Shown piece by piece: positions 10,007 through 47,700 of a stretch of DNA of 64,000 nt. How positions within the stretch are numbered: position 1 is the first letter of the stretch; each line of letters starts with the position of its first letter. This stretch comes from a virus, in the UHGV virus genome UHGV-1455077. One strand, 5' to 3'. The translations under genes were made by a program, and so were the position numbers. The notes under the pieces were generated by a model that worked only from the letters and a program-made list of their open reading frames with translations, searched no databases and was not told the DNA's origin.

Positions 10007-11242
10007 ATGGCAAATTTTGAATGTAAAATTGTTAAAATTGAAAAGAAAGCAAATCATCCTAACGCTGACCGTTTGACAATTTATAATATTGGTGGATATA
10101 ATTGTATTTCTAATAAATTGCCAGATGGTTCTGACCGTTATGATATTGGAGATTTGGTTGTCTATATTCCAGAAAATGCTTTGCTTCCTGAATGGTTGCT
10201 TAAGAAAATGGATTTTTGGAATGAAGAAAAAGGTAAGGGTATTCTTGCTGGTAAAGAAGGAAATAGAGTAAAACCATTGAAACTTCGTGGAATTTTTTCT
10301 GAAGGTGTTCTTTATCCTTGCTTGACAATGAGAGAATATGAAGAAGGATTTAGTGTTGATGAGGTTGTTAAATCTTATGGATATGATGAAAATACTAAAT
10401 TCGTATTTCAGGAAAAATCAGCAGAAGGATATGTTGGTTTTACGCCTGCTGTTGAAGGAATAGATGTTGCAGATTTTCTTGGAATTACAAAATATGAACC
10501 AATAATTCCTGCAAAAATGAGTGGTGAAATTTTTAATGGTGGAACTGAAATTGTTGTTCCTTATGATGTTGAACCTATTCAGAAGTATATGGATGCTTTT
10601 GTTGAAGGAGAAATGTTTGAAGCAACAGAAAAAATTCACGGAACTCAAACTCGTTTTATCTTTACTAAAGGTAATGTAAATGAAGAAACTTTTGGTGAAA
10701 ATAAAGATATTTATATTGCTTCAAAGGGTCAGGGAGATAAAGGTTTATTCTTTAAAAATAATCTTTCTAACTCAAATTCTTATTATGTTAGAGCATTTAA
10801 GCTTAATAATATTGAAGAAAAAGTTATTAATTCTGAATTGTATAAAAGTTCTGATATGTTGACTTTGTTTGGTGAAACATATGGTATGCAGGATTTGAAA
10901 TATGGTTTGGAAAATGGACACATTGGGTATCGTTTGTTTGATGTATATGTTGGCAAACCTCGTCAAGGTCGTTTTCTGAATTATGAAGAATGTAAATCAT
11001 TTGCTGAAGAACTTGGAATTGAACGTGTTCCTTCATTGTATATTGGTGAATATTCTTTTGATAAAGTTATGGAATTGACAAGTGGTAAAACAACTCTTGG
11101 TAAAAATAAAGACCAAATTAGAGAAGGTGTTGTTATCCGTCCTTTGAATGAAAGATATGTTGAAGAACTTGGTCGTGTATTTTTGAAATCAGTTTCAGAA
11201 GCATATAAACTTCGTAAAGGTGAAACAACTGAATATAATTAA
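10007..11242 (+). CDS. ATP-dependent RNA ligase (KxHG lysine motif, DraRnl/Rnl5-like) with an N-terminal tRNA-binding OB (Myf/Trbp111-like) domain
   Basis: N-terminus KIVKIEKKANHPNADRL ... KPLKLRGIFSEGVLY matches the tRNA_bind domain pattern; the nucleotidyltransferase motif I is KIHGTQ. Confidence 0.55.
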   Translation: MANFECKIVKIEKKANHPNADRLTIYNIGGYNCISNKLPDGSDRYDIGDLVVYIPENALLPEWLLKKMDFWNEEKGKGILAGKEGNRVKPLKLRGIFSEGVLYPCLTMREYEEGFSVDEVVKSYGYDENTKFVFQEKSAEGYVGFTPAVEGIDVADFLGITKYEPIIPAKMSGEIFNGGTEIVVPYDVEPIQKYMDAFVEGEMFEATEKIHGTQTRFIFTKGNVNEETFGENKDIYIASKGQGDKGLFFKNNLSNSNSYYVRAFKLNNIEEKVINSELYKSSDMLTLFGETYGMQDLKYGLENGHIGYRLFDVYVGKPRQGRFLNYEECKSFAEELGIERVPSLYIGEYSFDKVMELTSGKTTLGKNKDQIREGVVIRPLNERYVEELGRVFLKSVSEAYKLRKGETTEYN

Positions 11243-19067: not shown

Positions 19068-21182
19068 ATGAAATTATATAGAGGTTATAATAAAGATTAT
19101 CCAAATTGGGGAATTAGACCAAATCAAAATTATATTTGGACGACTGATGATATTGATTATGCATTAGAGTATACTAAATTATTTGATAATGGCGGTTTAG
19201 TTGAATTTGATGTAGATGTAAATCAATTAAATTTAGCAGATGATTATGATGGTGAAGAATTATTTGGCGATGAATGGTATGATTTTGGTGGTTTGATTGA
19301 TGCTGATAATGATATGATTCAAGTTTTTATAGATAATGGTTTTAATTCAGCATTATTAGATAATAGTGGGATTGATTGTTATTTATTATTTGATAAAAAA
19401 TTAATTAAATCCGCAAAAGAATTACCATTAAATAATATTGAAAATAAATTAAATGAATCTTATCAATTATTTAAAAATATATATTTAAAAGAACATACAG
19501 GATTTATCGTAAGAGAAACACCAGCATCATATCTAACATATATAAAAAATTACATACAAAAAGTTCTTGATTATGAGCCAAATGCAAACAATTATCCCTT
19601 TATTACAGAAGATAAAAAATATTATTGGGATAGAATTGCAGGATATTATAATGTAGATACTAAAGAATTCATTTATATTTCACCCGATGAAACACATCAA
19701 AATGAAGAAGAATTTTATGAAAAAAATTATGTAAGATTTTTTATAGCAGATATAAAACATAGAGCATTATATGTTTCACATATTGATTATAATATTGCCT
19801 ATAAAGGCTATAAAGCTATAAAAGAAAAATATAAAGATTTTGGAATTGAATATTCTGTTGTTGAATGGTATGAAAACAATGATTGGAAAGAAATAACTTT
19901 TGATGATAAAGGACATAAAGTTAAAATAACTCAAATTTATGAAGAATTTAAAAAATATGTAATGCCATTATATGAACAACATTTTAATAAAGAAATTAAT
20001 GAAGTTTTAAGAATTGCTGGGGTTCAACGATTAAATGAATCTTGGACGGATAGTAATAATTTATATAATATATATGAAAATTATACACCATATAATGTTT
20101 TAGTGGCATTTAAAGAAGGTGAAAAAAACATTTGGTTTCCATTGATTAAACCAACAGAATATAAACAAGCGTTATTGGAATTTATGAAAATGGGTGAATT
20201 AGTAAGATTTCCAAAAGATAAAGTATTTAAATGGTTAGAAATAATTATGAAAAATACTTGTATTTTAAGCTCTAATACTTTTTTAGCAGGTCACGAAATG
20301 TATTTTCCATTTGACGATATTATAGATGCTTATCCAGAAGCAGAAAATCTTGAACAAGATTATTATGTTTTTTCTAAATTTTTAGAAGATAAAGGTTTTT
20401 ATAATTGGTGTAAATTGCCAGATGGTTCACCTGCTTGGAGTGATTATGGATTAAAACCATTATGGAATATATTAGATGAATATAAAGAAGATATGACTAT
20501 TGAACAAGTTCTTGTATTGGTTAATAGATGTTTAGATGTTTATCATCAACAAGGAGATTTAGCATCAGCATTTATTGAAGGTGGTTCATCATCATTAACA
20601 AAAATTTCTAATGAATGTGTTAAAAATAATGGTAATATAATTAATGAATCATATTTGAAAACAGATAATGGGATAATTTATTATACAAAATCAGAAAATG
20701 TTTTTATTAATACTATAAATGCAAGATTTAAGAATATACCTGTTAGAGTAATTTATGATTTAAAAAATAGATTATATGTATTTGGTGATGCTAATAAATT
20801 TGTTCATACACAAATGATGAATTATATTCTTATTAACACAAAATTATATTCTACAAAAGGGTGGAATCAAAGTTATTTTAATGAAGATGGTAATTATTGG
20901 CGAGATGGATATATAGAGGATAATTTATTTAATGCACAATGTGCTTTATTTCAAATAATTTGGGATGATGATATTGAAAAATATACAAAATATGATGGAT
21001 ATGATACAGGATATTTTACCACAATAGATAATAAAATGTATGTTGTTTGTAGACAGAATGAATTAAAATATTGTGAAAAAGTACCTTTATTATGGAATAA
21101 TCATTGGTTTTCACAAAAATATGATAATATGAAAGATTTTCAATTAAATGAATCTATATTTGGAGAAACACTTGGTTATTAA
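19068..21182 (+). CDS. large protein with an N-terminal ADP-ribosyltransferase-like domain (R variant of the H/R-G-S...FYxT motif family)
   Basis: KLYRGYN ... YIWTTDDIDYALEY ... VEFDVD. Parallels YHGS...YFTSDKDAALDYS in the other paralogous domains. Confidence 0.4.
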   Translation: MKLYRGYNKDYPNWGIRPNQNYIWTTDDIDYALEYTKLFDNGGLVEFDVDVNQLNLADDYDGEELFGDEWYDFGGLIDADNDMIQVFIDNGFNSALLDNSGIDCYLLFDKKLIKSAKELPLNNIENKLNESYQLFKNIYLKEHTGFIVRETPASYLTYIKNYIQKVLDYEPNANNYPFITEDKKYYWDRIAGYYNVDTKEFIYISPDETHQNEEEFYEKNYVRFFIADIKHRALYVSHIDYNIAYKGYKAIKEKYKDFGIEYSVVEWYENNDWKEITFDDKGHKVKITQIYEEFKKYVMPLYEQHFNKEINEVLRIAGVQRLNESWTDSNNLYNIYENYTPYNVLVAFKEGEKNIWFPLIKPTEYKQALLEFMKMGELVRFPKDKVFKWLEIIMKNTCILSSNTFLAGHEMYFPFDDIIDAYPEAENLEQDYYVFSKFLEDKGFYNWCKLPDGSPAWSDYGLKPLWNILDEYKEDMTIEQVLVLVNRCLDVYHQQGDLASAFIEGGSSSLTKISNECVKNNGNIINESYLKTDNGIIYYTKSENVFINTINARFKNIPVRVIYDLKNRLYVFGDANKFVHTQMMNYILINTKLYSTKGWNQSYFNEDGNYWRDGYIEDNLFNAQCALFQIIWDDDIEKYTKYDGYDTGYFTTIDNKMYVVCRQNELKYCEKVPLLWNNHWFSQKYDNMKDFQLNESIFGETLGY

Positions 21183-21191
21183 GGATTAATT

Positions 21192-21572
21192 ATGAAAATA
21201 TTTTTAAAACTTTTACCATATTTAATAATTATTGCTTTAGGTTTTGGAATTTATGGCGGATTTAAATATATGTCAGATGAAGTATCTAAAGCTAAGGAAC
21301 AGGTTCAAACTCTTTTAATTCAAAAATCTGAATTAGAAAATAAAGTTGATACTTTAAATACAATTAAAGATATTTCTATTGAACAACAAGTTCAACTTCA
21401 ACATAATGAAAAAGAATCTATTAAATATATTAATGATTTCAATAATAAAGTTAATGAATTGACATTTAATGAGGATAAAGACATTATACTTATGAAAATT
21501 AATAACTATGAAGTATGTATGGCAAAAAATTCATTAAATCCTGAAATTAAATGTGAATTAAATTTAAAATAA
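21192..21572 (+). CDS. small membrane-anchored coiled-coil protein
   Basis: N-terminal transmembrane segment LLPYLIIIALGFGIYGGF, then coiled coil. Confidence 0.4.
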   Translation: MKIFLKLLPYLIIIALGFGIYGGFKYMSDEVSKAKEQVQTLLIQKSELENKVDTLNTIKDISIEQQVQLQHNEKESIKYINDFNNKVNELTFNEDKDIILMKINNYEVCMAKNSLNPEIKCELNLK

Positions 21573-21585
21573 TTGATTTTTCCTA

Positions 21586-21613
21586 TTGACAAGTAATTTT
21601 TATATGTTATATT
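21586..21613 (+). promoter_or_regulatory. sigma70-like promoter TTGACA-N16-TATATT (32-bp element repeated exactly at 41781)
   Basis: CCTATTGACAAGTAATTTTTATATGTTATATT at 21582-21613. Confidence 0.5.
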
Positions 21614-21648
21614 AACCTTATCAAAAACAACAATGAAAGGTTAATAAA

Positions 21649-22020
21649 ATGAAAACTTCTGATGAATTGAATGAACTGATGGCTTATGCTACTGGAACTG
21701 AAAATTATTATCGTTTCGGTTTGATTAATCCAATTCTTATTACCGATGGAGTTGAAACATTTGCAAAAAATGCTGAAACTGTTTGGTTTTTGAATGACTT
21801 TTGCATTTTTATGAATAAATGGATTAATAAAAATGCTGATGAGTATTTGTTTTCTGTTGAATTAATTTCTAAAAATGACAAAGGAAAAATGGTCATTAAA
21901 GATGGTGAAGGCAATAGATTGTATTCAAAAAATTATGATTATACTGACTGCCCAGAAGGAAATTGGAAATTCTTTTATGATAAAGAATCAAGAGTGTTGA
22001 TGTGGCACGGTGAATATTAA
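21649..22020 (+). CDS. hypothetical protein
   Basis: ORF downstream of a promoter. Confidence 0.45.
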   Translation: MKTSDELNELMAYATGTENYYRFGLINPILITDGVETFAKNAETVWFLNDFCIFMNKWINKNADEYLFSVELISKNDKGKMVIKDGEGNRLYSKNYDYTDCPEGNWKFFYDKESRVLMWHGEY

Positions 22021-22028
22021 AAAATATA

Positions 22029-22065
22029 AAAATCCCTGTAATAAATATCATTATAGGGATTTTTA
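22029..22065 (+). terminator. hairpin terminator AAATCCCT...AGGGATTT plus T run
   Basis: Inverted repeat followed by TTTAGG. Confidence 0.45.
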
Positions 22066-22075
22066 GGATATAAAT

Positions 22076-22774
22076 ATGGAAATATCAAAATTTATGAAGA
22101 CTGTTTTAGAAATGGCTGGCGTTGAAGAACCGTTAGAAGAAATGGCTTATCCAATAAATTTTAATTTAGAAGAATTTTCTCGTATTCCAACATTTAGTGG
22201 AAGAAAAAAATATTGTGATGAGCGTTTGCAAAAAATAGGTACAGGTTCTTCCAGAATTGTTTACAGAGTTGATGATGAAAAGGCGTTAAAAATAGCTAAA
22301 AATAAAAAAGGTATTGCTCAAAATGAACACGAAGCTGATTGGGGTAGAAATAATTATGATATTTTTGCAAAAATTTATGAAGCTGATGAGAATAATTATA
22401 CTTGGATTGAAATGGAATTGGCATCAAAAATTAAACCATCTGATTTTAAAAGATTAGTTGGTGTTTCTTGGGCAGAAGTATGTTTAACAATAGAATATAT
22501 TTATGATATATATAAACCTAATAAAAATCCATATTATGTTAAAAGATATAATAGTGATTTAATGGAAAAATTTATGAATGAAGAAGTTTATTCAGAAAAA
22601 AATGAATTTCTTTTTAATTTATATGGATATATGACAGATTATCAACCAATGATGATTAATGATTGGACAAGAATCGCAAACTGGGGGATAGTTGAACGTA
22701 ATGGGCAGGAATTACCTGTTATTATTGATGATGGATTGGATGAATTAATTTATAAAACTTATTATGGATGGTAG
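22076..22774 (+). CDS. protein-kinase-like / aminoglycoside-phosphotransferase-like phosphotransferase (putative)
   Basis: GTGSSRIVYRV (Gly-rich loop, compare APH GQSGATVYRL), ALKIAK (Lys), NDWTRIAN (catalytic D..N-like), VIIDDG (compare APH IDVG). Confidence 0.35.
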   Translation: MEISKFMKTVLEMAGVEEPLEEMAYPINFNLEEFSRIPTFSGRKKYCDERLQKIGTGSSRIVYRVDDEKALKIAKNKKGIAQNEHEADWGRNNYDIFAKIYEADENNYTWIEMELASKIKPSDFKRLVGVSWAEVCLTIEYIYDIYKPNKNPYYVKRYNSDLMEKFMNEEVYSEKNEFLFNLYGYMTDYQPMMINDWTRIANWGIVERNGQELPVIIDDGLDELIYKTYYGW

Positions 22775-22777
22775 AAA

Positions 22778-24175
22778 ATGAAAATAATTGCATATCACGG
22801 AAGTCAAACAAGTAAATTGAAAATGTATAATGGTTCTGCTTTGTATTTTACAACAAGTTATGAACAAGCTAAATCATATGCTAAACGTGAATGGGATGAA
22901 GGGCTAATTGAGGGAGAAATTCCTGTTGTATATAAAGCTGAATTAACTTTTAATAATCCTTACAAAATTGAAAATTATGATGATTTTCAAATGGAATTTA
23001 CAGATAGTAATATGAATGAATATTTTAGAGAAGAATTAATTGAAAAAGGATATGATTCTGCTATTTATAATGATAGAAAATCAACTTTGATATGTATTTT
23101 TTATCCTTCACAATATAAAATTTTAGATATAGAAAAACTTCCACCTTCATTAGACTATTATTATAATGGAGAACTTAATGATGAAGATGATGATATAAAT
23201 GACTATTATTATGAAAACGACTATGAAGATGAATTAAATGAAGTATTAAAATTATCTAATATTAAACTTATTAATGAGCAAAAAGATTTTACAACATTTC
23301 AATTACCTAAAAATATACCAAGTAATTTTTTTAAAATAACTAATTCATTAAAAGATATAAAAAATTGGAAAGCGAGAATTTTAGAAAATAATAGTGGCGG
23401 TGAAGAATTAAAAGTTGGTGATTATGATGAAGTTGGATATGTAATGATTTCATTAAAAGATAATACTATTATTCCAATTGCTCATTCCGATGAACATCAT
23501 CGTGGATATGATATTATGTATGAAATATATGAATCAAAATATAAAATTCATCCGAGTAATTTTTATAGCGTTTATTGCTTACCAAATTCTGCCAATTATC
23601 CATATAGTAAAGAAGAAGCTGATAAATTAAAAGATGCTTTAATTAAATGTGATGAATATGGAATGGATTTGGATACATCTAAAGTTTATTTAAAATATAT
23701 TGATAGTCTTTATAAAAATAAATCATATGATGAATCTTTAATTTCTGCCAGAGATTTTATTTCTGGAAAATATGGGTTGGCATCATTTGGAGAAACTGTT
23801 TCTCTTATTGGTGAGAAGTTGGTAGATGCATTTAAAAATTTATCAAATACATTTGAAAATACAAATGTTCGTGGAGATATTCCAATAACACAATTAAAAA
23901 TGGCTGTTAAAAAATTATATACAGTTGGTAGTCGTATTCAACTTCCAGATAAATTTAAGTTAATCAATCCATTAGATTTAGAAGAAATGATGGATATTAT
24001 TGAACAATATAAATCTAAATATATTGATATACAAAAATTATATAAATTATTTTTTGGATTTAATGGATTTAGAAATATTTTTCATCAAAGACTAAGAAAA
24101 AATATTGGCAATGAAGATTTAAATAAACAATTAGGTTCAGTTAAAGTTGTCATTGAAATGATAGGGGCAATATAA
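22778..24175 (+). CDS. protein with an N-terminal diphtheria-toxin-like (H-Y-E) ADP-ribosyltransferase-like domain and an unknown C-terminal domain
   Basis: AYHGSQ ... GSALYFTTSYEQAKSYA ... YKIENY. An acidic linker, then the ELNEVLKLSNIKLINE motif shared with ORF 24175. Confidence 0.45.
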   Translation: MKIIAYHGSQTSKLKMYNGSALYFTTSYEQAKSYAKREWDEGLIEGEIPVVYKAELTFNNPYKIENYDDFQMEFTDSNMNEYFREELIEKGYDSAIYNDRKSTLICIFYPSQYKILDIEKLPPSLDYYYNGELNDEDDDINDYYYENDYEDELNEVLKLSNIKLINEQKDFTTFQLPKNIPSNFFKITNSLKDIKNWKARILENNSGGEELKVGDYDEVGYVMISLKDNTIIPIAHSDEHHRGYDIMYEIYESKYKIHPSNFYSVYCLPNSANYPYSKEEADKLKDALIKCDEYGMDLDTSKVYLKYIDSLYKNKSYDESLISARDFISGKYGLASFGETVSLIGEKLVDAFKNLSNTFENTNVRGDIPITQLKMAVKKLYTVGSRIQLPDKFKLINPLDLEEMMDIIEQYKSKYIDIQKLYKLFFGFNGFRNIFHQRLRKNIGNEDLNKQLGSVKVVIEMIGAI

Positions 24176-24957
24176 TGTTTGAAAAAGAAATTAATGAAAT
24201 ATTAAAATTATCAGGTATAGATATTTTAAATGAAATATCCTTATCTGGTTATTTGGAACGTTCACGTAATTTAAAAAATATGTTATTTCACGGAACATCA
24301 TTATTTAATGCTTATAAAATTTTTGAATCAGACCTTATAATAGGTTATACAGAAACAACACCTGTGAATGGTAAATCTTATACTGGTGTATCAACATCAA
24401 GAAATTTTGATTATTCAGCAAAGTTCGCTTTACAATATTCAGATGATTACCATTTTAAAAATTATTATTTAGATAATATATTTAATCCTGTTGTTGTTTT
24501 TTGTTTTAATAAAGATAATTTAAAATCAAAATATAAAATAGTTCCATATGATTATAATAGTACAAATGATAGTTTTTATAGTAAAAGAACCGAACAAGAA
24601 GAAGTTATTGTTGGAAATATTAAAAATATTAAAAATATAACAGAAAAAGTTGTTATGAATAAAGATGCTTTAACTCTTTTTCAATATGGTGCTATAGGTG
24701 AATTTTTAATTAAAAGATATTATTTCTTTAATAATAAAGAAGAAGAATTTTATGATGATATATTTGATATAGCCATAGAAGAAAATTTAACTTATGACGA
24801 AGATAAAGATGTATATATAACATCTGCGGGTGAAACATTATATCCTGATGATATTTATAATATTGGTTTAGAAAAAATGATTCAAAAAATGTTTCCTAAA
24901 ATGAATGAATTTTATGAATTTTTAAAAGATAAAAAATTCGAAATATATAATAATTAA
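24175..24957 (+). CDS. ADP-ribosyltransferase-like protein (H-G-T ... PVNGKSYTGVSTS, PARP/DT-like)
   Basis: LFHGTSLFNAYKIFESDLIIGY ... TPVNGKSYTGVSTSRNFDYSAKFA parallels PARP HGS...PVTGYMFGKGIYFA. N-terminal EINEILKLSGIDILNE motif. Confidence 0.45.
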   Translation: MFEKEINEILKLSGIDILNEISLSGYLERSRNLKNMLFHGTSLFNAYKIFESDLIIGYTETTPVNGKSYTGVSTSRNFDYSAKFALQYSDDYHFKNYYLDNIFNPVVVFCFNKDNLKSKYKIVPYDYNSTNDSFYSKRTEQEEVIVGNIKNIKNITEKVVMNKDALTLFQYGAIGEFLIKRYYFFNNKEEEFYDDIFDIAIEENLTYDEDKDVYITSAGETLYPDDIYNIGLEKMIQKMFPKMNEFYEFLKDKKFEIYNN

Positions 24958-24966
24958 AGGTTTATT

Positions 24967-25296
24967 ATGAAAAAAATATTAATTATTTTATTAGCTATTT
25001 TATTATGTGCCTGTACAACCGTTAAAACTGAATATGTTTATCAAACTGTTTATCCAGAATTACCACAGCTTGAATCTCCATTAATTTTAGCAAATATTCC
25101 TTGTACATTTATAATGCCTGAAAACCCTGATGAAAAAATTTTTATTGGATTTGATAAAGAAAATTATAAATGTTATTTAAAAAATCAAGAAATAAATCGT
25201 GAACAGAAACTTCTTTTTGAAAAATTTGTATCAGAAATTAACAAAGAAAGAAAAAATTGGAATTTTAAAAACAAAAAGATTGACAATAAAAAATAA
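24967..25296 (+). CDS. lipoprotein
   Basis: Signal peptide with lipobox ILLCAC. Confidence 0.55.
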   Translation: MKKILIILLAILLCACTTVKTEYVYQTVYPELPQLESPLILANIPCTFIMPENPDEKIFIGFDKENYKCYLKNQEINREQKLLFEKFVSEINKERKNWNFKNKKIDNKK

Positions 25297-25331: not shown

Positions 25332-26009
25332 ATGTCATTTTTTAATTTAAAAAAAATAAAATCCCTGACAAAATTAAATAAAATTTATAGATTACTAAGT
25401 AAAACATATCATCCAGATAATAAAGTAACAGGTAATGCAGAGCAATTTATAGAATTGAAAGAAGAATATGATAATGCTAAAAAAATAGTATCATCATTGC
25501 CAACTTCAATTGTTATCAATATAACTACAACTCAAGCTTTTAAGGGAAAAGAGGTAATTTATAATTCTAAAAATGGCGAAACTGCCATAATTAAAATACC
25601 ACCAAAATTTTATAAACAAGATAATGTATTAATTAAAGATAATAATGGTAACAAGTATATTGTTTCTGTAAATATTAAACCAGACGAAGATGAAAATATT
25701 ACTTATTCTCGGAATGGCGATATAATTATTACAAAATATATTGATGTTACTCCTCTTGATTTGTTAACAGAAAATATCAAAACATTTAAATTATTTGGTG
25801 AAGAAAAGAAAATTCAAATAACTAAAAATTTAATTAATAATATTCAACAACCTTTTATGTTGTTAAATATTGGTTATCCATTGAAAAAAGATAGAAAAAA
25901 ACGTGGAAATGTTAAGATTAAATTTAGAATTAAATCTATTACATTAGATGATAATGATAAAAAAGATATTGTTAGAATGAAGGAAAAATATAAATGTCAA
26001 TTGAATTAA
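25332..26009 (+). CDS. J-domain (DnaJ-like) protein
   Basis: YRLLSKTYHPDNK carries the HPD tripeptide in a J-domain-like setting. Confidence 0.55.
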   Translation: MSFFNLKKIKSLTKLNKIYRLLSKTYHPDNKVTGNAEQFIELKEEYDNAKKIVSSLPTSIVINITTTQAFKGKEVIYNSKNGETAIIKIPPKFYKQDNVLIKDNNGNKYIVSVNIKPDEDENITYSRNGDIIITKYIDVTPLDLLTENIKTFKLFGEEKKIQITKNLINNIQQPFMLLNIGYPLKKDRKKRGNVKIKFRIKSITLDDNDKKDIVRMKEKYKCQLN

Positions 26010-28270
26010 ATGAACAAAGTATGTTAACTGAAATAGGGTTACAAGCTACCGAATTTCTTAAAAAATCTAAGGCTAAAACATTATTACCTGTGCATTTTTT
26101 AGCGGCTTTGTTACAATTTGATTATATTAAAAATCTTCTAAATAATAAAAAACCAGAAGAATATAAAAAATTGGTTGAAGAAGTTAATGATTTCATTTTT
26201 AATTCAGATAAAATTGAAAAGTTAACTGATGAAGATGACCCAAATGAAATGGAAATTAGTCCTTTAATAAGTGCTTACATTTCATATGTGAGTGTATGCA
26301 GTAAAGGAAGTGCTGATATTATAAAAGTTATTCCTGAACTACATTGGATTGATTTATTAGGAGCATTTTTATTTTTAAAGACTGATATTTCAACAATTAT
26401 TTTAACAAAATATGGAATTAATTTAGAGTTTATTGATGAAGTTTTTGAAGAACTGACCGCTGATATTATTATTGAAGAAAGAATCAAACCAATTATCAAT
26501 AATCAAACCAATGAAAATAATGCGGAAGAAGAATATTTGAAATCTTTTACAATAAATTTAACTGAAAAAGTTAAATCTACTGATTGGATTCCTATTGTTG
26601 GAAGAACAGACGATTTAGATTTAATAAAACAAATTTTATTAAGAAAAGACAAACCTAATGTTTTATTGGTTGGATATTCAGGTGTAGGTAAAACAAAATT
26701 AGTTGAAGGTTTGGCTTATGATTATTTAACATATGATAAGAATACAACATTTTTACAATTAGATACATTATCTTTAATGTCAAATATTGGTATTAAAGGT
26801 GAGTTAGAAAATCGTATTAAAAATTTGTATAGAATTATGATGAAAAAAGAAAATATTATATTATTCATTGATGAAATTCATACAGTATGTAATTCATCTC
26901 CTAATTCTGGGCAAATTGATATATCTAATTTATTAAAACCATTACTAACTGATGGAAAATTAAAACTTATAGGGGCAACAACATTTGAAGAATATAGAAA
27001 ATATATGGAAGATGATGAAGCTTTTACCAGAAGATTTTATAAATTAGTTATTAATGAGCCAACATTTGAAGAAACACAAAAAATTCTTGCTCAAATTTCA
27101 TCAAAATATGAATATTTTTATAAAATAAAATATTTAAAAAGAGCAAGAGATTCAATTTTGGATTTAACAAAAAAATATATGTTTGAAAAACATTTTCCTG
27201 AAAAAGCTATTGATGTACTGGATATGGCAGGAGCATATTGTAAGCATATTAATGAATGTGTATGTGATGTTCCACAAATTCAACAAACAATTGCTAGAAT
27301 GTTAAATCTTCCATTATCAACTGTTTCCCAGACTGAAGAAAATATGTATCAGCATATTGAAGAAAACCTTAAAAAAGAAATCATTGGTCAAGATGAAGCT
27401 GTTAAACAAGTAAGTGATGCTGTAATCATTTCTCGGTCTGGCTTACGAGAATCAAATAAAACAGCATCTTCGCTGATGTTTAAGGGTTCTTCTGGTGTGG
27501 GTAAAACAGAATTATGTAAAGTATTAGCTAAATCAATGAATATACCATTGATACGTTTTGATATGTCAGAATATATGGAAGAACATTCTGTACCAAAATT
27601 AATTGGTGCCCCTCCAGGATATAAAGATGCAGGCAATGGTAAAGCAGGAAATGGATTATTAATTAATGCAATTGATGAAAATCCATATTGCATATTATTA
27701 CTTGATGAGATAGAAAAAGCTCATCCGAAAATTCATAATTTACTTTTACAAGTAATGGATAATGGTAAATTAACATCGTCAATGGGTAAAAGTGTATCTT
27801 TTGAAAATGTATTTTTAATTATGACTTCAAATGTTGGGTCATATAATAGTCATAAAATTCGTATTGGATTTGGTAATACTGATGAAAGTCCATCTGATAA
27901 GGATTTTGAAGATAGCTTTTTGCCTGAATTTAGAAATCGTATTGATTCAGTAATTACATTTAATGATTTACCATTAAATGTGTTAAAAGAAATTTGTAAA
28001 AAATTTCTTAATGAATTAAAAGAAATGTTAAAGCAAAAAAAGATTGATTTTGTTTTTAATGATGATATTATAGAGTATATCATTTCAAAGGTTAAATCAT
28101 CTAAAGATGGTGCAAGACCGATGAAGCACGTTATTACTAATGAAATCAAAAATGAAATAGCAAAAAATATTGTATTTGGAAAATACAATAAAAATGATAA
28201 AATAAAATTATCAATTAAAAACAATATTATTAATTTTGAGGTTGTGAAAAAATGTTTGAAAGAAGATTAA
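25994..28270 (+). CDS. ClpA/ClpB-family double AAA+ ATPase (unfoldase) with Clp N-domain
   Basis: D1 Walker A GYSGVGKT and Walker B ILFIDEIH. D2 GSSGVGKTELCKVLA ... IRFDMSEYMEEHSVPKLIGAPPGY ... LLLDEIEKAHPKIHNLLLQVMDNGKLT ... EFRNRID. IGF tripeptide in the position of the ClpA IGL ClpP-docking loop. Confidence 0.8.
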   Translation: MSIELNEQSMLTEIGLQATEFLKKSKAKTLLPVHFLAALLQFDYIKNLLNNKKPEEYKKLVEEVNDFIFNSDKIEKLTDEDDPNEMEISPLISAYISYVSVCSKGSADIIKVIPELHWIDLLGAFLFLKTDISTIILTKYGINLEFIDEVFEELTADIIIEERIKPIINNQTNENNAEEEYLKSFTINLTEKVKSTDWIPIVGRTDDLDLIKQILLRKDKPNVLLVGYSGVGKTKLVEGLAYDYLTYDKNTTFLQLDTLSLMSNIGIKGELENRIKNLYRIMMKKENIILFIDEIHTVCNSSPNSGQIDISNLLKPLLTDGKLKLIGATTFEEYRKYMEDDEAFTRRFYKLVINEPTFEETQKILAQISSKYEYFYKIKYLKRARDSILDLTKKYMFEKHFPEKAIDVLDMAGAYCKHINECVCDVPQIQQTIARMLNLPLSTVSQTEENMYQHIEENLKKEIIGQDEAVKQVSDAVIISRSGLRESNKTASSLMFKGSSGVGKTELCKVLAKSMNIPLIRFDMSEYMEEHSVPKLIGAPPGYKDAGNGKAGNGLLINAIDENPYCILLLDEIEKAHPKIHNLLLQVMDNGKLTSSMGKSVSFENVFLIMTSNVGSYNSHKIRIGFGNTDESPSDKDFEDSFLPEFRNRIDSVITFNDLPLNVLKEICKKFLNELKEMLKQKKIDFVFNDDIIEYIISKVKSSKDGARPMKHVITNEIKNEIAKNIVFGKYNKNDKIKLSIKNNIINFEVVKKCLKED

Positions 28271-42845: not shown

Positions 42846-44111
42846 ATGAGAACTTATTTAGTTGGCGGAGCAGTAAGAGATATGCTACTTGGAAAAGAAC
42901 CACACGATAAAGATTATGTGGTTGTAGAATCATCAGTAGATGAAATGTTATCATTAGGTTATCAACAAGTAGGTAAAGATTTTCCTGTTTTTCTTCATCC
43001 AATAACAGGTGAAGAATATGCACTTGCAAGAACTGAAAGAAAAACTGGAAATAAACATACTGATTTTGAATTTTTTGCTGATTATGCTGTTACCTTATTT
43101 GAAGATTTAGGTCGCCGTGATTTTACTATGAATGCTATTGCTTTTAATATTGAAAATGAAAGTTGTTGGAGTTGTTGCTTAAATGACCCTTTTAAAGGCG
43201 TAAATGATATTAGAAATAAAATTATTCGTCATATTAGTGATTCATTTAAAGAAGACCCACTTCGTGTTTTACGAGCTTGTAGATTTTCAGCACAACTTGG
43301 ATTTGAAATTGCTTCTGAAACTATGGAATTAATGTCAAATATGGTAAATGATGGAATGTTAAATCATTTAACTGTTGAAAGAGTTTGGAAAGAAACTGAA
43401 AAAGCATTATCTTCTGGCTATGATTCTGAAAAATATTTTGAAACTCTTAATCAATGTGGTGCATTGAAAGTATTGTTTCCAGAAATATATAGACTTGTTA
43501 ATACACCTGAACAAGTAAAATATCATCCTTCTGGAAATACTTTTAAACATACAATGATTGCTTTATCAAGAGTTAAAAATGAAAATTCTTTAACAAAATT
43601 TGCCGTTGTTTGCCACGATTTAGGAAAAGGTACAACTCCTGTTGATATTTTACCTAAGCATAGCGGACACGATGAAAGAGGATTAACAGAAATTGATTCT
43701 TTGTGTGATAGACTAAAAGTTCCAAATAATTATAGAAATTGTGCAAAAACATTTTGTAAAAATCATATGCGTATGGCTCGTTTTAATGAAATGAATGTTA
43801 AAAAACAATATGATATGATTAAAGAATTATCAAATAATTTTAAAGAACAAATGCTTTTGGAATTATATATTGATTGTTTTTATGCTGATTGGACAGGTGA
43901 AAATGAACAAACAGCTTGGAATAATTTAGATGAAGCAGATGCAATTACGACAAAAATGAGAAAAATATTTTCTTTAATGGAAAGAATTACTTTAAAAGAT
44001 TTACCAGAAAAAACACAAGAAGATTTAAGTAAACAAAAAGGTGAAAAATTTGGTAAACTTTATCGTGATGCAATGATAAGTTATTTAAAATATAAATTGA
44101 AAAATTCTTAA
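42846..44111 (+). CDS. cca: tRNA nucleotidyltransferase (CCA-adding enzyme) with HD domain
   Basis: YLVGGAVRDMLLG ... HDKDYVV (Pol-beta NT motifs), GRRDFTMNAIA, HD-domain VCHDLGKG. Confidence 0.7.
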   Translation: MRTYLVGGAVRDMLLGKEPHDKDYVVVESSVDEMLSLGYQQVGKDFPVFLHPITGEEYALARTERKTGNKHTDFEFFADYAVTLFEDLGRRDFTMNAIAFNIENESCWSCCLNDPFKGVNDIRNKIIRHISDSFKEDPLRVLRACRFSAQLGFEIASETMELMSNMVNDGMLNHLTVERVWKETEKALSSGYDSEKYFETLNQCGALKVLFPEIYRLVNTPEQVKYHPSGNTFKHTMIALSRVKNENSLTKFAVVCHDLGKGTTPVDILPKHSGHDERGLTEIDSLCDRLKVPNNYRNCAKTFCKNHMRMARFNEMNVKKQYDMIKELSNNFKEQMLLELYIDCFYADWTGENEQTAWNNLDEADAITTKMRKIFSLMERITLKDLPEKTQEDLSKQKGEKFGKLYRDAMISYLKYKLKNS

Positions 44112-44709: not shown

Positions 44710-47700
44710 CTAATCATTCGCACCCCATTTAATTGTATCAATATTTCCATAAATTTCTTTTAAAAACCAACCAAATTTTTCTTTTGTAATTTCTATTGCA
44801 TCATCAATATCGTCATCTTCTGAAATATAGGGCCAAACTAAAACTTCATTGTTATCTCCTAATGTACCAACAATATCACCATCAACATCAGCATATTCCA
44901 TAACTGCACCGTGCATAGCAACGCCAGCATCCCATACATATAATGTTTTTGATTGAGAATTATATACAAATCTAAAAGCTCCATATTCTGTTTTACTAAA
45001 AGTATTTCTTATCCATTCTGCCGAAGGATTTTTCCAAACTTTTAATTGAATATAATTTTCACTATATTCATCATAAACTTCTTCATTAAAATATAATGAT
45101 TCATTTAAATTAAATCTTTTAACATCCAGAACTTGAACATCTTTAGGATTAAATATAACAAAACATCTTCCATCTTGTTCACCAACATAAGTAATACCTT
45201 TAATACCATATTTTAGTAATACCATAGATGCTTTTTTAGAAGTTTCAAAAGCGTAAACCATTTTAGAATAAATTTCTTGACCTGTATCTGTATCTTCAAA
45301 TTCTAAATTAAATATGTTATTAATTTTATACAATTTATCTTTGATAGATGGAAATTGTTGATTTAAAGTTCTGTCTTCATATAAGTACCCATTTTCAGGT
45401 ATATCGCAAGTATAAACATAAGAAGGTTCTTGTTTAATATAATCTAATAATTTTAATTGAATTTTCTTTTGTTTAATTCTTTTTTTGATATTCTCAAGCA
45501 TTTGTGAGTTATTGTTACCCATAGAATTCCAATGTTTTAAACTTAATTCGTAATCTTTTATTAAATAATTCAATTCTTCTCTATAATCTGGAATAGTATA
45601 AGATGTAACATTAGCAAAAAAATTATATAATGTTTCATTATCTTTTTGATTTATTTTTTTATTTCCAAGATAAACACCAGTATCATTCCATTTTATTAAT
45701 TGACCTTTAAAATATGTTTTTTTGTTTACAGAAAATGTTTTAGCATATTTTTCGCCAATTTTTCTATCTAATGCATAATATAATCCCCAACCGTGTGCTT
45801 GATTTCCTTCGCCTGAACCAATAGCAATCAAAGAAGGTTTTTCATACTGTGTTGGAGAACCAGCATAAACTCTCATTTCATTAATTTGATGTTTGCCATT
45901 ATATTTTTCAATAAGAAGTTTATATAATTTTGTATCTAAAAAGTCATCAGTTCTATAATAAACAACAAAATTTTTACAAATAATCATATCATCAAAATAA
46001 TCATTTTTTCTATCAAAAGAAAAATAATCATTTTCATCAATTAAAATAGCAGGAAGATTTTCCCAATATTCATCTTTTTCACGTTGATTTTTAAAATTAT
46101 AATAACCTGCTTGAATAGCATAATCAAATAATTGATTATGTATATTAAATAAAGAATTGCCAATAATATATAAATTTTTATTTGTATCAATTAAAACTCT
46201 CATAGAAGGAATTTTATTAGTTAATTTAATAACATCGTAAACATTATTTGTAATATAAATTGGTGTATGAATAGTTTCAATTGTTTGTAATGATTCTTTT
46301 ATAGTATTATTTGAATCCCACATTTTATGCAATGTATCGTAAATAACTTGTATTTGATGCTCATCAAATTTCCATAATTTACCAATGTTTTCATCAGCCC
46401 ATTCAAAAGGTGTATTTCCGTAATATTCTGACATAGCACACCAATCTGCACACATTTCATATAATGCTTCATCGGGCATTTTACCTCTTACATCTGGTGC
46501 TTTAAAATAACTATTTTTATCCCAATGTTGAGAATGATGAGCATTATTACGATAATGTAATTCTTGAGCTACTTTAAATGATTTCCATTCCTCATCAGTA
46601 CAATTCATTTTACCCCAAATAAAACCTTTAATGTAAGGAATTAATAATTCTTTTGAAAATTTATCAGCATCGTGATTTGGATATTGTTTGTTTATTTTAG
46701 AAGCATATTTATTAACTAAATTTTTATGATTTTCATAATGTTGTTTAAATTCTTTTACATCTTCTTCAGATATTTTTTTATTTTCAACATTTTCATTTAA
46801 ACATTCATCAACATTTTCTGAATAAGGAGACCATAATCCTTTATTATAAACAGATTTAATTTGTGAAGGATTCCAAACAATATATTCATCTATAATATTA
46901 TTTGAACCACCCATTGGTGTACAATTATCAAGTACATTTTTAAAAATTACTCCATCAAATGATTCTTGCTGTATATATTCATCATTTTCTTCATCATAAG
47001 TTTCTAATTTATTAATAATATCATAATATAAATCTTCATCAAATAAATCATTGTTAAAATCAACATTACCTTGTAATGTTGCAATGATGGTATGACGAAC
47101 AGAATGGTTAAGCATACCCCCCTCAAAATCATAAATATAAGGATTTTCAATTTGAAGAAATGATGGGTTAATAGTTGGATTTTCTAATTTCTTTTCTCTA
47201 ATTTCTTCAGCATAAGCATACCAATCTTTTTCTTTGTCTATACCTTTATCATAAAATTCACTTTCTTTTGCTCTTACTTCAGCTTCACCTGAATAATCAA
47301 GAGCGGCATCTTTATCTGATGTGAAATAAAATGCACCTTCTTCATTATTACCTGTGTTTAAACTACAATAATTTTTATCAAATCTTTTAATATTAACATT
47401 GCTTCCGTGATAACAAATTAATGGATTACCATTCACATCAACAACTTTGGAATTACCAAACCATTTCCAGAAATTATCATTTAATAAATATTCTTGTTTT
47501 AATTCTTTTGAATTATTTGAATTAATCTTTTTATTTTCAAAATCAATGTCATCTCCAACATTTACTTTATTAAATGTTCCTTCTCCAAACCAGTTATCTA
47601 TAATTTTTTGATGATACCATTGTCCATCATCTAATTTGATTTGATTTTTATATTTGTCTTCAACAACTGATTCATCTAATAAACCTAAATCGTCATCGGC

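Follow-up and report, generated by a model that had tools for sequence, protein, structure and literature searches.

Six domains with an ADP-ribosyltransferase fold, of three lineages, in modular proteins of a metagenomic jumbo phage

ART-PolyVal, a family of ADP-ribosyltransferases (ARTs), is the commonest modifying enzyme in polyvalent proteins, where it reaches up to 12 copies per protein, and its active site has been defined as a histidine in strand 1, a tyrosine in strand 2 and an aspartate in strand 5 (PMC5512222). The ARTs of polyvalent proteins are predicted to be injected in the manner of T4 Alt (PMC5512222). ARTs have been found in more than 40% of jumbo phages, often linked to morphogenesis genes and with at least 10 in phage G, and a 2022 survey distinguished 16 ART families in viruses, the N4-like one being among the most frequent (PMC9503650). 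The cleavage site of T4 gp21 lies behind L/I-X-E, Alt is trimmed of a propeptide at either end, and cargo is brought into the T4 head by short N-terminal capsid-targeting sequences (PMC9026906), while head proteins of SPN3US carry propeptides of 20-24 residues, with Ser preferred at P1' (PMC10052503). Here, we describe a stretch of 64,000 nucleotides from the virus genome UHGV-1455077 (hereafter, the window), in which a preliminary description had pointed to ART-like domains in four proteins. Three of their open reading frames (ORFs) are named by their first position i.e., ORF 19068, ORF 22778, and ORF 24175; the fourth is a giant ORF.

All four ORFs, together with the motifs quoted for them in the preliminary description, are present in the window. 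They encode modular proteins that contain six ART-fold domains belonging to three lineages. The first lineage is ART-PolyVal proper, with four copies, one in ORF 22778 (aa 1-135) and three in the giant ORF (aa 85-232, 587-809, and 1118-1378); the second is the N-terminal module A of ORF 19068, an Arg-variant sister of ART-PolyVal; and the third is ORF 24175, which represents a Tpt1/DarT-like family with an H-S-E set. By structure comparison, the split beta-sheet core of the ART fold was recognizable, in agreement with the fold that had been proposed. We consider it rather probable, though far from certain, that a jumbo myovirus keeps part of its effector arsenal in this region, where modular polyvalent proteins combine ARTs with other modules, effector-type or unassigned, that are joined by a linker.

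Profile searches resolved the relationships among these domains. The giant ORF scored 59.7 bits against the Pfam model of ART-PolyVal (PF18760; gathering score, 31.2 bits), i.e., above the cut-off, in two stretches; aa 59-232 taken alone gave 26.7 bits (E=1.1e-5; profile positions 8-137 of 140). The model aligned to aa 4-114 of ORF 22778 with 31.0 bits, just below the cut-off, and a protein 99% identical to ORF 22778 (P0221) carries a pre-made PF18760 annotation. Neither module A nor ORF 24175 was matched in the PF18760 search. The preliminary description had proposed a profile hidden Markov model (HMM) as a check on its claim; a seed HMM built from the ART-PolyVal copies only did match aa 1-130 of ORF 19068 (22.5 bits, E=9.5e-8 among 15 chunks), a region that hhalign also aligned with the ART-PolyVal copies (E=8e-6 over 127 columns), but it did not match ORF 24175 (-9 bits). 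When the four proteins were compared by BLASTP with each other and with all window ORFs, the only similarity seen was a linker of 19 aa, and none was seen between the ART domains. Because ORF 24175 misses the profile and pairwise BLAST finds nothing, the sameness of the domains holds at the level of fold or superfamily and not of family. The earlier claim of five copies of the same domain is thus upheld in so far as the copies share a fold beyond chance, but they are of three lineages rather than one family and they number six, with giant aa 1118-1378 being the addition. No further ART copy emerged when every window ORF was scanned with profiles, PHROGs yielded nothing for the three smaller proteins, and NCBIfam and PADLOC searches yielded nothing meaningful.

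Catalytic residues were assigned in all six domains from alignments and predicted secondary structure only. The full H-Y-D/E set is kept in a single copy, giant aa 587-809, which the label "H-Y-E" of the preliminary description fits well; in the other three ART-PolyVal copies and in module A, the set is altered according to the alignments. The canonical copy has a motif, FWKWFGNS, in its N-terminal part, and tblastn searches with it gave matches in Pseudomonas phage F116 and in Dickeya jumbo phages. The catalytic columns of ORF 22778 hold H7, Y23, and a Thr at the strand-5 acid position, and its subfamily shares a conserved acidic insert, REWDEGLIEGE. In giant aa 1118-1378 (VYAGS...GEGNQAHGWGLYYA...QDGRCFVIFNPKDVQVL), profile alignment placed A1124 where most relatives have His, with Y1152 and D1354 being kept; YAGS here stands against (W/Y)HG(S/T) in most relatives. 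This copy gave a weak match to the seed HMM and has 129 relatives in IMG/VR. While it lacks a direct match to PF18760, seven of the 11 aligned members of its family do match that model (best E=5e-8).

Module A carries R5 in strand 1, I23, W24 and T26 in strand 2, and D103 at the start of strand 5, with R5, W24, T26 and D109 being invariant. Pfam searches with module A up to E<=10 gave no match, and ORF 19068 as a whole had none in Pfam, PHROG or NCBIfam. With its strand-1 Arg and Thr-rich strand 2 the module is like R-S-E enzymes. It also resembles RES-domain toxins (MbcT, ParT, Res), which suggest another possible mode of action, namely that, rather than passing ADP-ribose to macromolecules, the domains chiefly target NAD+ itself as RES-toxin-like NADases or NAD+ phosphorylases, resulting in host metabolic shutdown or in interference with NAD+-dependent defense. 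We regard such an activity as quite improbable. The likeness of module A to RES-domain toxins is structural only, without a match to a RES profile, and the module differs from them in having no Xre-type antitoxin and in forming the N-terminal part of a 704-aa phage protein.

In ORF 24175, the catalytic columns hold H39 in strand 1, S73 in strand 2, and E142/E143 in strand 5. Across 61 diverse sequences of its family, H39, S73, R76, E142 and E143 are invariant, whereas the Tyr that had been chosen in the preliminary description is not conserved. The family comprises 443 unannotated representative clusters, all of whose source names read "hypothetical protein", and has no Pfam, PHROG or NCBIfam model; tblastn searches of phages with ORF 24175 and with a stand-alone member, P0098, gave 0 matches. 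In T4-like phages its members are commonly stand-alone proteins of 170 aa, while others occur in 7-8 copies inside single giant proteins or are joined to ART-PolyVal and module A. Seven Bacillus phage G proteins were returned by a BFVD fold search with ORF 24175, which also matched proteins from other jumbo phages. The additional label of PARP-like was not borne out, as the combination of a match to the PARP catalytic domain (PF00644; gathering score, 26.7 bits) and a PARP as the nearest structure was not found. The stand-alone member P0098 (L005 3461-7132, on the T4-like contig JGI 3300071334) lies in a series of seven ORFs, each of 155-202 aa, flanked by T4-type baseplate/tail-tube genes and a gp2-like gene; the neighboring ORFs may encode paralogs or further small internal proteins.

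In a related phage, a deletion at the shared SKYKI has joined ORF 22778 aa 1-255 to ORF 24175 aa 119-260, giving a 395-aa protein, P0072. The deletion, at the junction of the two ORFs (23540-24530 of the window), takes out the N-terminal half of the ORF 24175 ART domain. An assignment of ORF 24175 to ART-PolyVal through the PF18760 annotation of P0072 was rejected, since that protein includes part of ORF 22778.

The resemblance of ORF 24175 to Tpt1 invites a different interpretation i.e., that the protein is not an offensive effector but a KptA/Tpt1-type RNA repair enzyme, whose removal of 2'-phosphates, in concert with a phage RNA ligase, would counteract host anticodon nucleases. PDB profile matches to Tpt1 reached only E=0.46 or weaker, and the alignment is limited to 87 residues, corresponding to the NAD lobe. 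The N-terminal RNA lobe of Tpt1 carries most of the R-H-R-R tetrad. Both this lobe and the tetrad are absent from ORF 24175, as its ART domain directly follows the 20-aa linker. In addition, the second His of the Tpt1/KptA H-H-h set is replaced by the invariant Ser in strand 2, and strand 5 holds the invariant E-E, as in transfer-type ARTs. Repeats of the family within giant proteins and its fusions to ART-PolyVal and module A also speak against RNA repair, as does the position of ORF 24175 in an effector cluster, 13 kb away from the ligase. Hence, we give little credence to a repair function. The profile match to DarT1 was marginal (E=0.007) and confined to the N-terminal half, and there was no Pfam DarT match. 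Unlike DarT, which ADP-ribosylates thymidine or guanosine in ssDNA, ORF 24175 has no DarG-like macrodomain partner in the window, its neighbors being a lipoprotein gene and a DnaJ-like gene; the invariant H-S-R-EE set is peculiar to the family and sets it apart from both DarT and Tpt1/KptA.

The residue patterns also bear on the proposal that most or all of the ART-fold domains are pseudo-enzymes, i.e., parts of an internal head, ejectosome or inner-body assembly with a structural or binding role, retained for the sake of the fold or of NAD or nucleotide binding and not for catalysis. Against it stand the H-Y-D/E set retained in giant aa 587-809, the invariance of the H, S, R and E-E residues over the diverse sequences of the ORF 24175 family, and the four invariant residues of module A. 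Moreover, human H-Y-I/L/T PARPs are active mono-ARTs, and the loss of Glu is therefore no proof of inactivity. We judge a wholly or largely non-catalytic set to be unlikely.

The modules of these proteins are joined by a linker with the consensus (E/Q)INEVL(K/R)(L/N)(A/S)G(V/I)..[LI]xE(S). The preliminary description had placed it after the ART domain in ORF 22778 and before that of ORF 24175, both of which are correct, but a pattern search found it in four window ORFs rather than two i.e., 19068, 22076, 22778, and 24175. The strict pattern was present in 28 of 248 fetched relatives, in each case either where two modules meet or right at the N-terminus. At the level of coding DNA, those window copies that are clearest (the three in ORFs 19068, 22778, and 24175) share only 53-62% identity, and the linker is therefore conserved at the peptide level; for the same reason, it is probably not a DNA-level recombination site. 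The related motif [LI]NES occurs five times in the 80 proteins of the window, all within these proteins, with ORF 19068 having four (0.03 expected), each at a module border.

Near-identical homologs (P0222, P0006, P0002, P0226, and P0236) differ at the linker by whole modules, which bears out the domain shuffling suggested in the preliminary description. In P0222, an additional ART-PolyVal module is inserted behind ELNEVLKLA; in P0006, everything beyond ...AGIQINES is exchanged; in P0236, the linker is the end of the protein; and P0226, found in other phages, corresponds to the C-terminal module of ORF 22778 as a stand-alone gene with the linker at its start. Module B of ORF 19068 is missing in close homologs such as P0002. 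In more distant homologs, GNAT, PF18823, PF14903 or P-loop kinase modules stand where the ART would be: homologs of ORF 22778 bear P-loop kinase or GNAT modules, and PF18760 itself is among the modules that replace module A in homologs of ORF 19068. These sequence comparisons support the view that evolution has added, removed, swapped or split modules at the linker.

In the effector reading that we favor, the working model is T4 Alt, an ART of the R-S-E clade that is loaded into the head, trimmed at L/I-X-E, and ejected, and that modifies host proteins. By analogy with Alt and with the polyvalent-protein model, the window proteins would be late gene products that are packaged into the head and leave it together with the DNA at ejection. 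Intact ARTs would then use NAD+ to ADP-ribosylate host macromolecules; proteins would be the most likely targets of the ART-PolyVal-type copies, nucleic acid may be a target of the Tpt1/DarT-like ORF 24175, and the degenerate copies would serve as binding or scaffold modules. Because [LI]-x-E(S) matches the specificity of T4 gp21, the analogy further suggests that these proteins may be split by a head protease into individual effectors. In this more speculative part of the model, the [LI]-x-E with which the linker and the module borders end would be a prohead-protease site, and the N-terminal linkers of 20-22 residues would be removable targeting propeptides. A bolder, combined version holds that (E/Q)INEVL(K/R)LAG(V/I)..[LI]xE↓S and the bare [LI]NE↓S borders form a portable head-targeting/prohead-protease cassette, that the polyvalent proteins are polyproteins cut by the capsid-maturation protease, that any module bearing the 20-residue tag (ORF 24175, ORF 22076) becomes ejectable cargo, and that the ORF 24175-type family serves phage offense by modifying host nucleic acid in the manner of DarT. 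We regard this combination as doubtful.

Several points weigh against an ejected set of active effectors. Packaging, ejection, NAD+ use and targets are all carried over from analogous systems, and only one of the four ART-PolyVal copies has the full H-Y-D set. The catalytic residues of ORF 22778 and of the giant copies come from profile alignment rather than structure, and in close homologs of ORF 22778 the strand-5 position is occupied by T, Q, K or D. The window contains no prohead protease, and the [LI]-x-E rule is that of T4 gp21, which may not be that of the present phage. No macrodomain, ARH or other ADP-ribose-processing partner was seen in the window. Finally, the homologs in which the linker was found comprise many close relatives and are not independent samples.

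The cluster might alternatively be a phage-borne toxin-antitoxin, superinfection-exclusion or defense module, in which the ARTs would act as toxins against competing phages. Consistent with this, DarT and RES, both classic toxins of toxin-antitoxin systems, were among the fold matches, and ORF 22778 gave a weak PADLOC match to PDC-M13B (E=0.003). There was, however, no significant match to a defense model, and neither a small antitoxin nor a macrodomain lies adjacent. The proteins are large and fuse many domains, as is typical of polyvalent proteins, and related jumbo phages show synteny of the locus with structural genes. Taken together, these features make a defense module highly improbable.

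The remaining modules, whose positions are given in Table 1, support the description of these proteins as polyvalent, a term for phage or plasmid polypeptides with at least two unrelated effector-type domains. The giant ORF combines its three ARTs with DUF5662 and three accessory modules, and the homologs have highly modular architectures. The His/Asp-rich motifs of DUF5662 (HYENH, NHDADKF, and NNAHHSQHW) suggest a metal-dependent hydrolase. The accessory module, of 70-90 aa, has the pattern ILKNP[TS]..E...R...D...Y.WDA....H, in which N-P, Y and H are nearly invariant. In the fetched relatives, it was matched 62 times in about 33 different proteins, frequently twice in one protein and mostly on the C-terminal side of the enzymatic modules; Pfam and PDB profile searches found no relatives. 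No part of these proteins is more conserved or more widely shared than module C of ORF 19068, in which 29 residues are invariant, with motifs such as LAGH..FP, LPDGSDAWSDYG, and LDV.H.RGDLAS.FI.GG. Judged by this sequence, it looks enzymatic. Its partners in other proteins are GNAT, PF18823, PF14903 or ART-PolyVal, and profile searches of Pfam, NCBIfam and PDB found no relative. The C-terminal module of ORF 22778, which ends in the conserved tail FFGFNG.RN.FHQRLR, likewise has no Pfam or PDB profile relative. Beside these, ORF 22076 has kinase-like features i.e., a glycine loop, GTGSSRIVY, and an ALKIAK motif, with a match to PHROG 4301 and, by phmmer against PDB, a weak match to the secreted SteC effector kinase (E=0.003). 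It is probably a further effector module of the ART cluster.

Table 1. Window coordinates of the four ART-containing ORFs, the kinase-like ORF 22076, and their modules and linkers.
Feature	Position	Strand	Description
ORF 19068	19068-21182	+	704 aa
ORF 19068 module A, aa 1-130	19068..19457	+	ART fold, Arg-for-His relative of ART-PolyVal
ORF 19068 module B, aa 131-307	19458..19988	+	borders are KLNE|S and the linker
ORF 19068 linker copy 1, aa 308-325	19989..20042	+	KEINEVLRIAGVQRLNES
ORF 19068 module C, aa 326-527	20043..20648	+	strongly conserved core
ORF 19068 NP[TS]...Y...H accessory module copy	20730..20924	+	iterative HMM 32.5 bits; A4 profile 22 bits
ORF 22076	22076..22774	+	linker-like N-terminus MEISKFMKTVLEMAGVEEPLEE, then kinase-like domain
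ORF 22076 linker-like N-terminus, aa 1-22		+	linker pattern match
ORF 22778	22778-24175	+	465 aa
ORF 22778 ART-PolyVal, aa 1-135	22778..23182	+	PF18760 31.0 bits
ORF 22778 linker copy 2, aa 151-168	23228..23281	+	DELNEVLKLSNIKLINEQ
ORF 22778 C-terminal module, aa 169-465	23282..24172	+	motif IPIA.SDEHH.GYD conserved
ORF 24175	24175-24957	+	260 aa
ORF 24175 linker copy 3, aa 1-20	24175..24234	+	MFEKEINEILKLSGIDILNE
ORF 24175 ART fold, aa 21-175	24235..24699	+	separate unannotated family
Giant ORF	44710-49233	-	1507 aa
Giant ORF accessory module copy 3	44806..45054	-	iterative HMM 46.6 bits; A4 profile 66.8 bits
Giant ORF sixth ART domain, aa 1118-1378	45100..45882	-	ART-PolyVal subfamily, long helical insert
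Giant ORF accessory module copy 2	46102..46224	-	weak and partial; iterative HMM 18.9 bits; A4 profile 10.4 bits
Giant ORF DUF5662 (PF18907), aa 827-965	46339..46755	-	E=3.8e-17
Giant ORF ART-PolyVal, aa 587-809	46807..47475	-	canonical: H609, Y636, D782/E783 (profile alignment); best PF18760 stretch 599-798
Giant ORF accessory module copy 1	47779..48039	-	iterative HMM 60.9 bits; A4 profile 73 bits
Giant ORF ART-PolyVal, aa 85-232	48538..48981	-	degenerate set H96, F112, N210 (profile alignment)

The window has a GC content of 25% and encodes virion structural proteins, a lysozyme-bearing baseplate hub, and tail fibers. An IMG/VR search yielded a contig of 216.8 kb that matches the window at 100%, a metagenomic contig of 286 kb keeps its gene order, and Rak2-like jumbo myoviruses are distant relatives of its structural proteins. 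From the structural genes, the sizes of the two contigs (217-286 kb) and the distant Rak2-like kinship, the source is therefore a jumbo phage, probably a jumbo myovirus. Megablast of the region against GenBank phages gave 0 matches, i.e., there is no close relative among deposited phages. The ART cluster lies 4-10 kb upstream of the virion/baseplate genes, on the same strand.

Directly after ORF 24175, a small ORF (24967-25296, +) has a lipoprotein-type signal, MKKILIILLAILLCAC; its product could be an exclusion lipoprotein or else a spanin. Directly downstream of the ART cluster and upstream of the virion genes, positions 25332-28270 (+) encode a J-domain-like protein (YRLLSKTYHPDNK) together with a ClpB/ClpA-type double AAA+ protein of 758 aa; it is conceivable that they chaperone large cargo proteins. 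A batch Pfam scan of window positions 1-45000, which gives the families present without assigning them to ORFs, listed an IMPDH/GMP-reductase-type enzyme, two DNA methylases, RNase H, PTH2, Hsp20, HD-domain proteins, and an RNA ligase with a PHA02142 OB domain, the last probably at 10007-11242. A CCA-adding-enzyme-like ORF is located at 42846-44111. Further along, a small ORF (61506-61727, +; MKTYNPKKSG...LRHETAPLLKELKM) is, judged by its sequence, a likely homolog of bS21, and one window protein matched Pfam Ribosomal_S21 (E=2e-7). Other large phages are already known to encode bS21; membership of the present phage in the published bS21-encoding freshwater phage clades is unlikely, given their GC content of 31-34% compared with 25% here.

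Set against the described systems, four of the window domains match ART-PolyVal (PF18760; the "N4-like"/Tox-ART-HYD2 clade; Iyer et al., 2017) directly or via their family. As described for ART-PolyVal, they occur in large multi-domain phage proteins, in more than one copy per protein, and beside kinase-like, GNAT-type and unassigned modules. They depart from that description in that only one copy keeps H-Y-D/E and that the proteins are partly "disaggregated" into neighboring genes that share the linker. They also have no MPTase or other peptidase domain, a type of domain proposed to process polyvalent proteins. They differ from T4 Alt in lacking sequence or profile kinship to Alt/VIP2, with module A grouping with ART-PolyVal by sequence, and in that their packaging and processing are only predicted. 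As in multi-ART jumbo phages such as Bacillus phage G, with its 10 or more ARTs (Iyer et al., 2022), several divergent ART paralogs lie near morphogenesis genes; unlike phage G, the present phage belongs to another lineage, distantly Rak2-like and with 25% GC, known only from metagenomes.

The interpretation given in the preliminary description is thus, as a whole, partly supported. With its many members, the cluster illustrates a phage strategy already on record and not a new kind of system; what is new is the metagenomic jumbo-phage lineage, the two ART lineages that have no database models (module A and the ORF 24175 family), and a well-defined linker. As the general phenomenon is already documented, the value of the locus is incremental. 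If the model is true, the phage would deliver varied NAD+-using enzymes at the onset of infection, each a candidate tool for host takeover or counter-defense. The lineages of module A and ORF 24175 could enter the catalogues of ARTs, with possible new targets, nucleic acid especially, and the linker offers a handle on the evolutionary assembly of polyvalent proteins and possibly on capsid processing.

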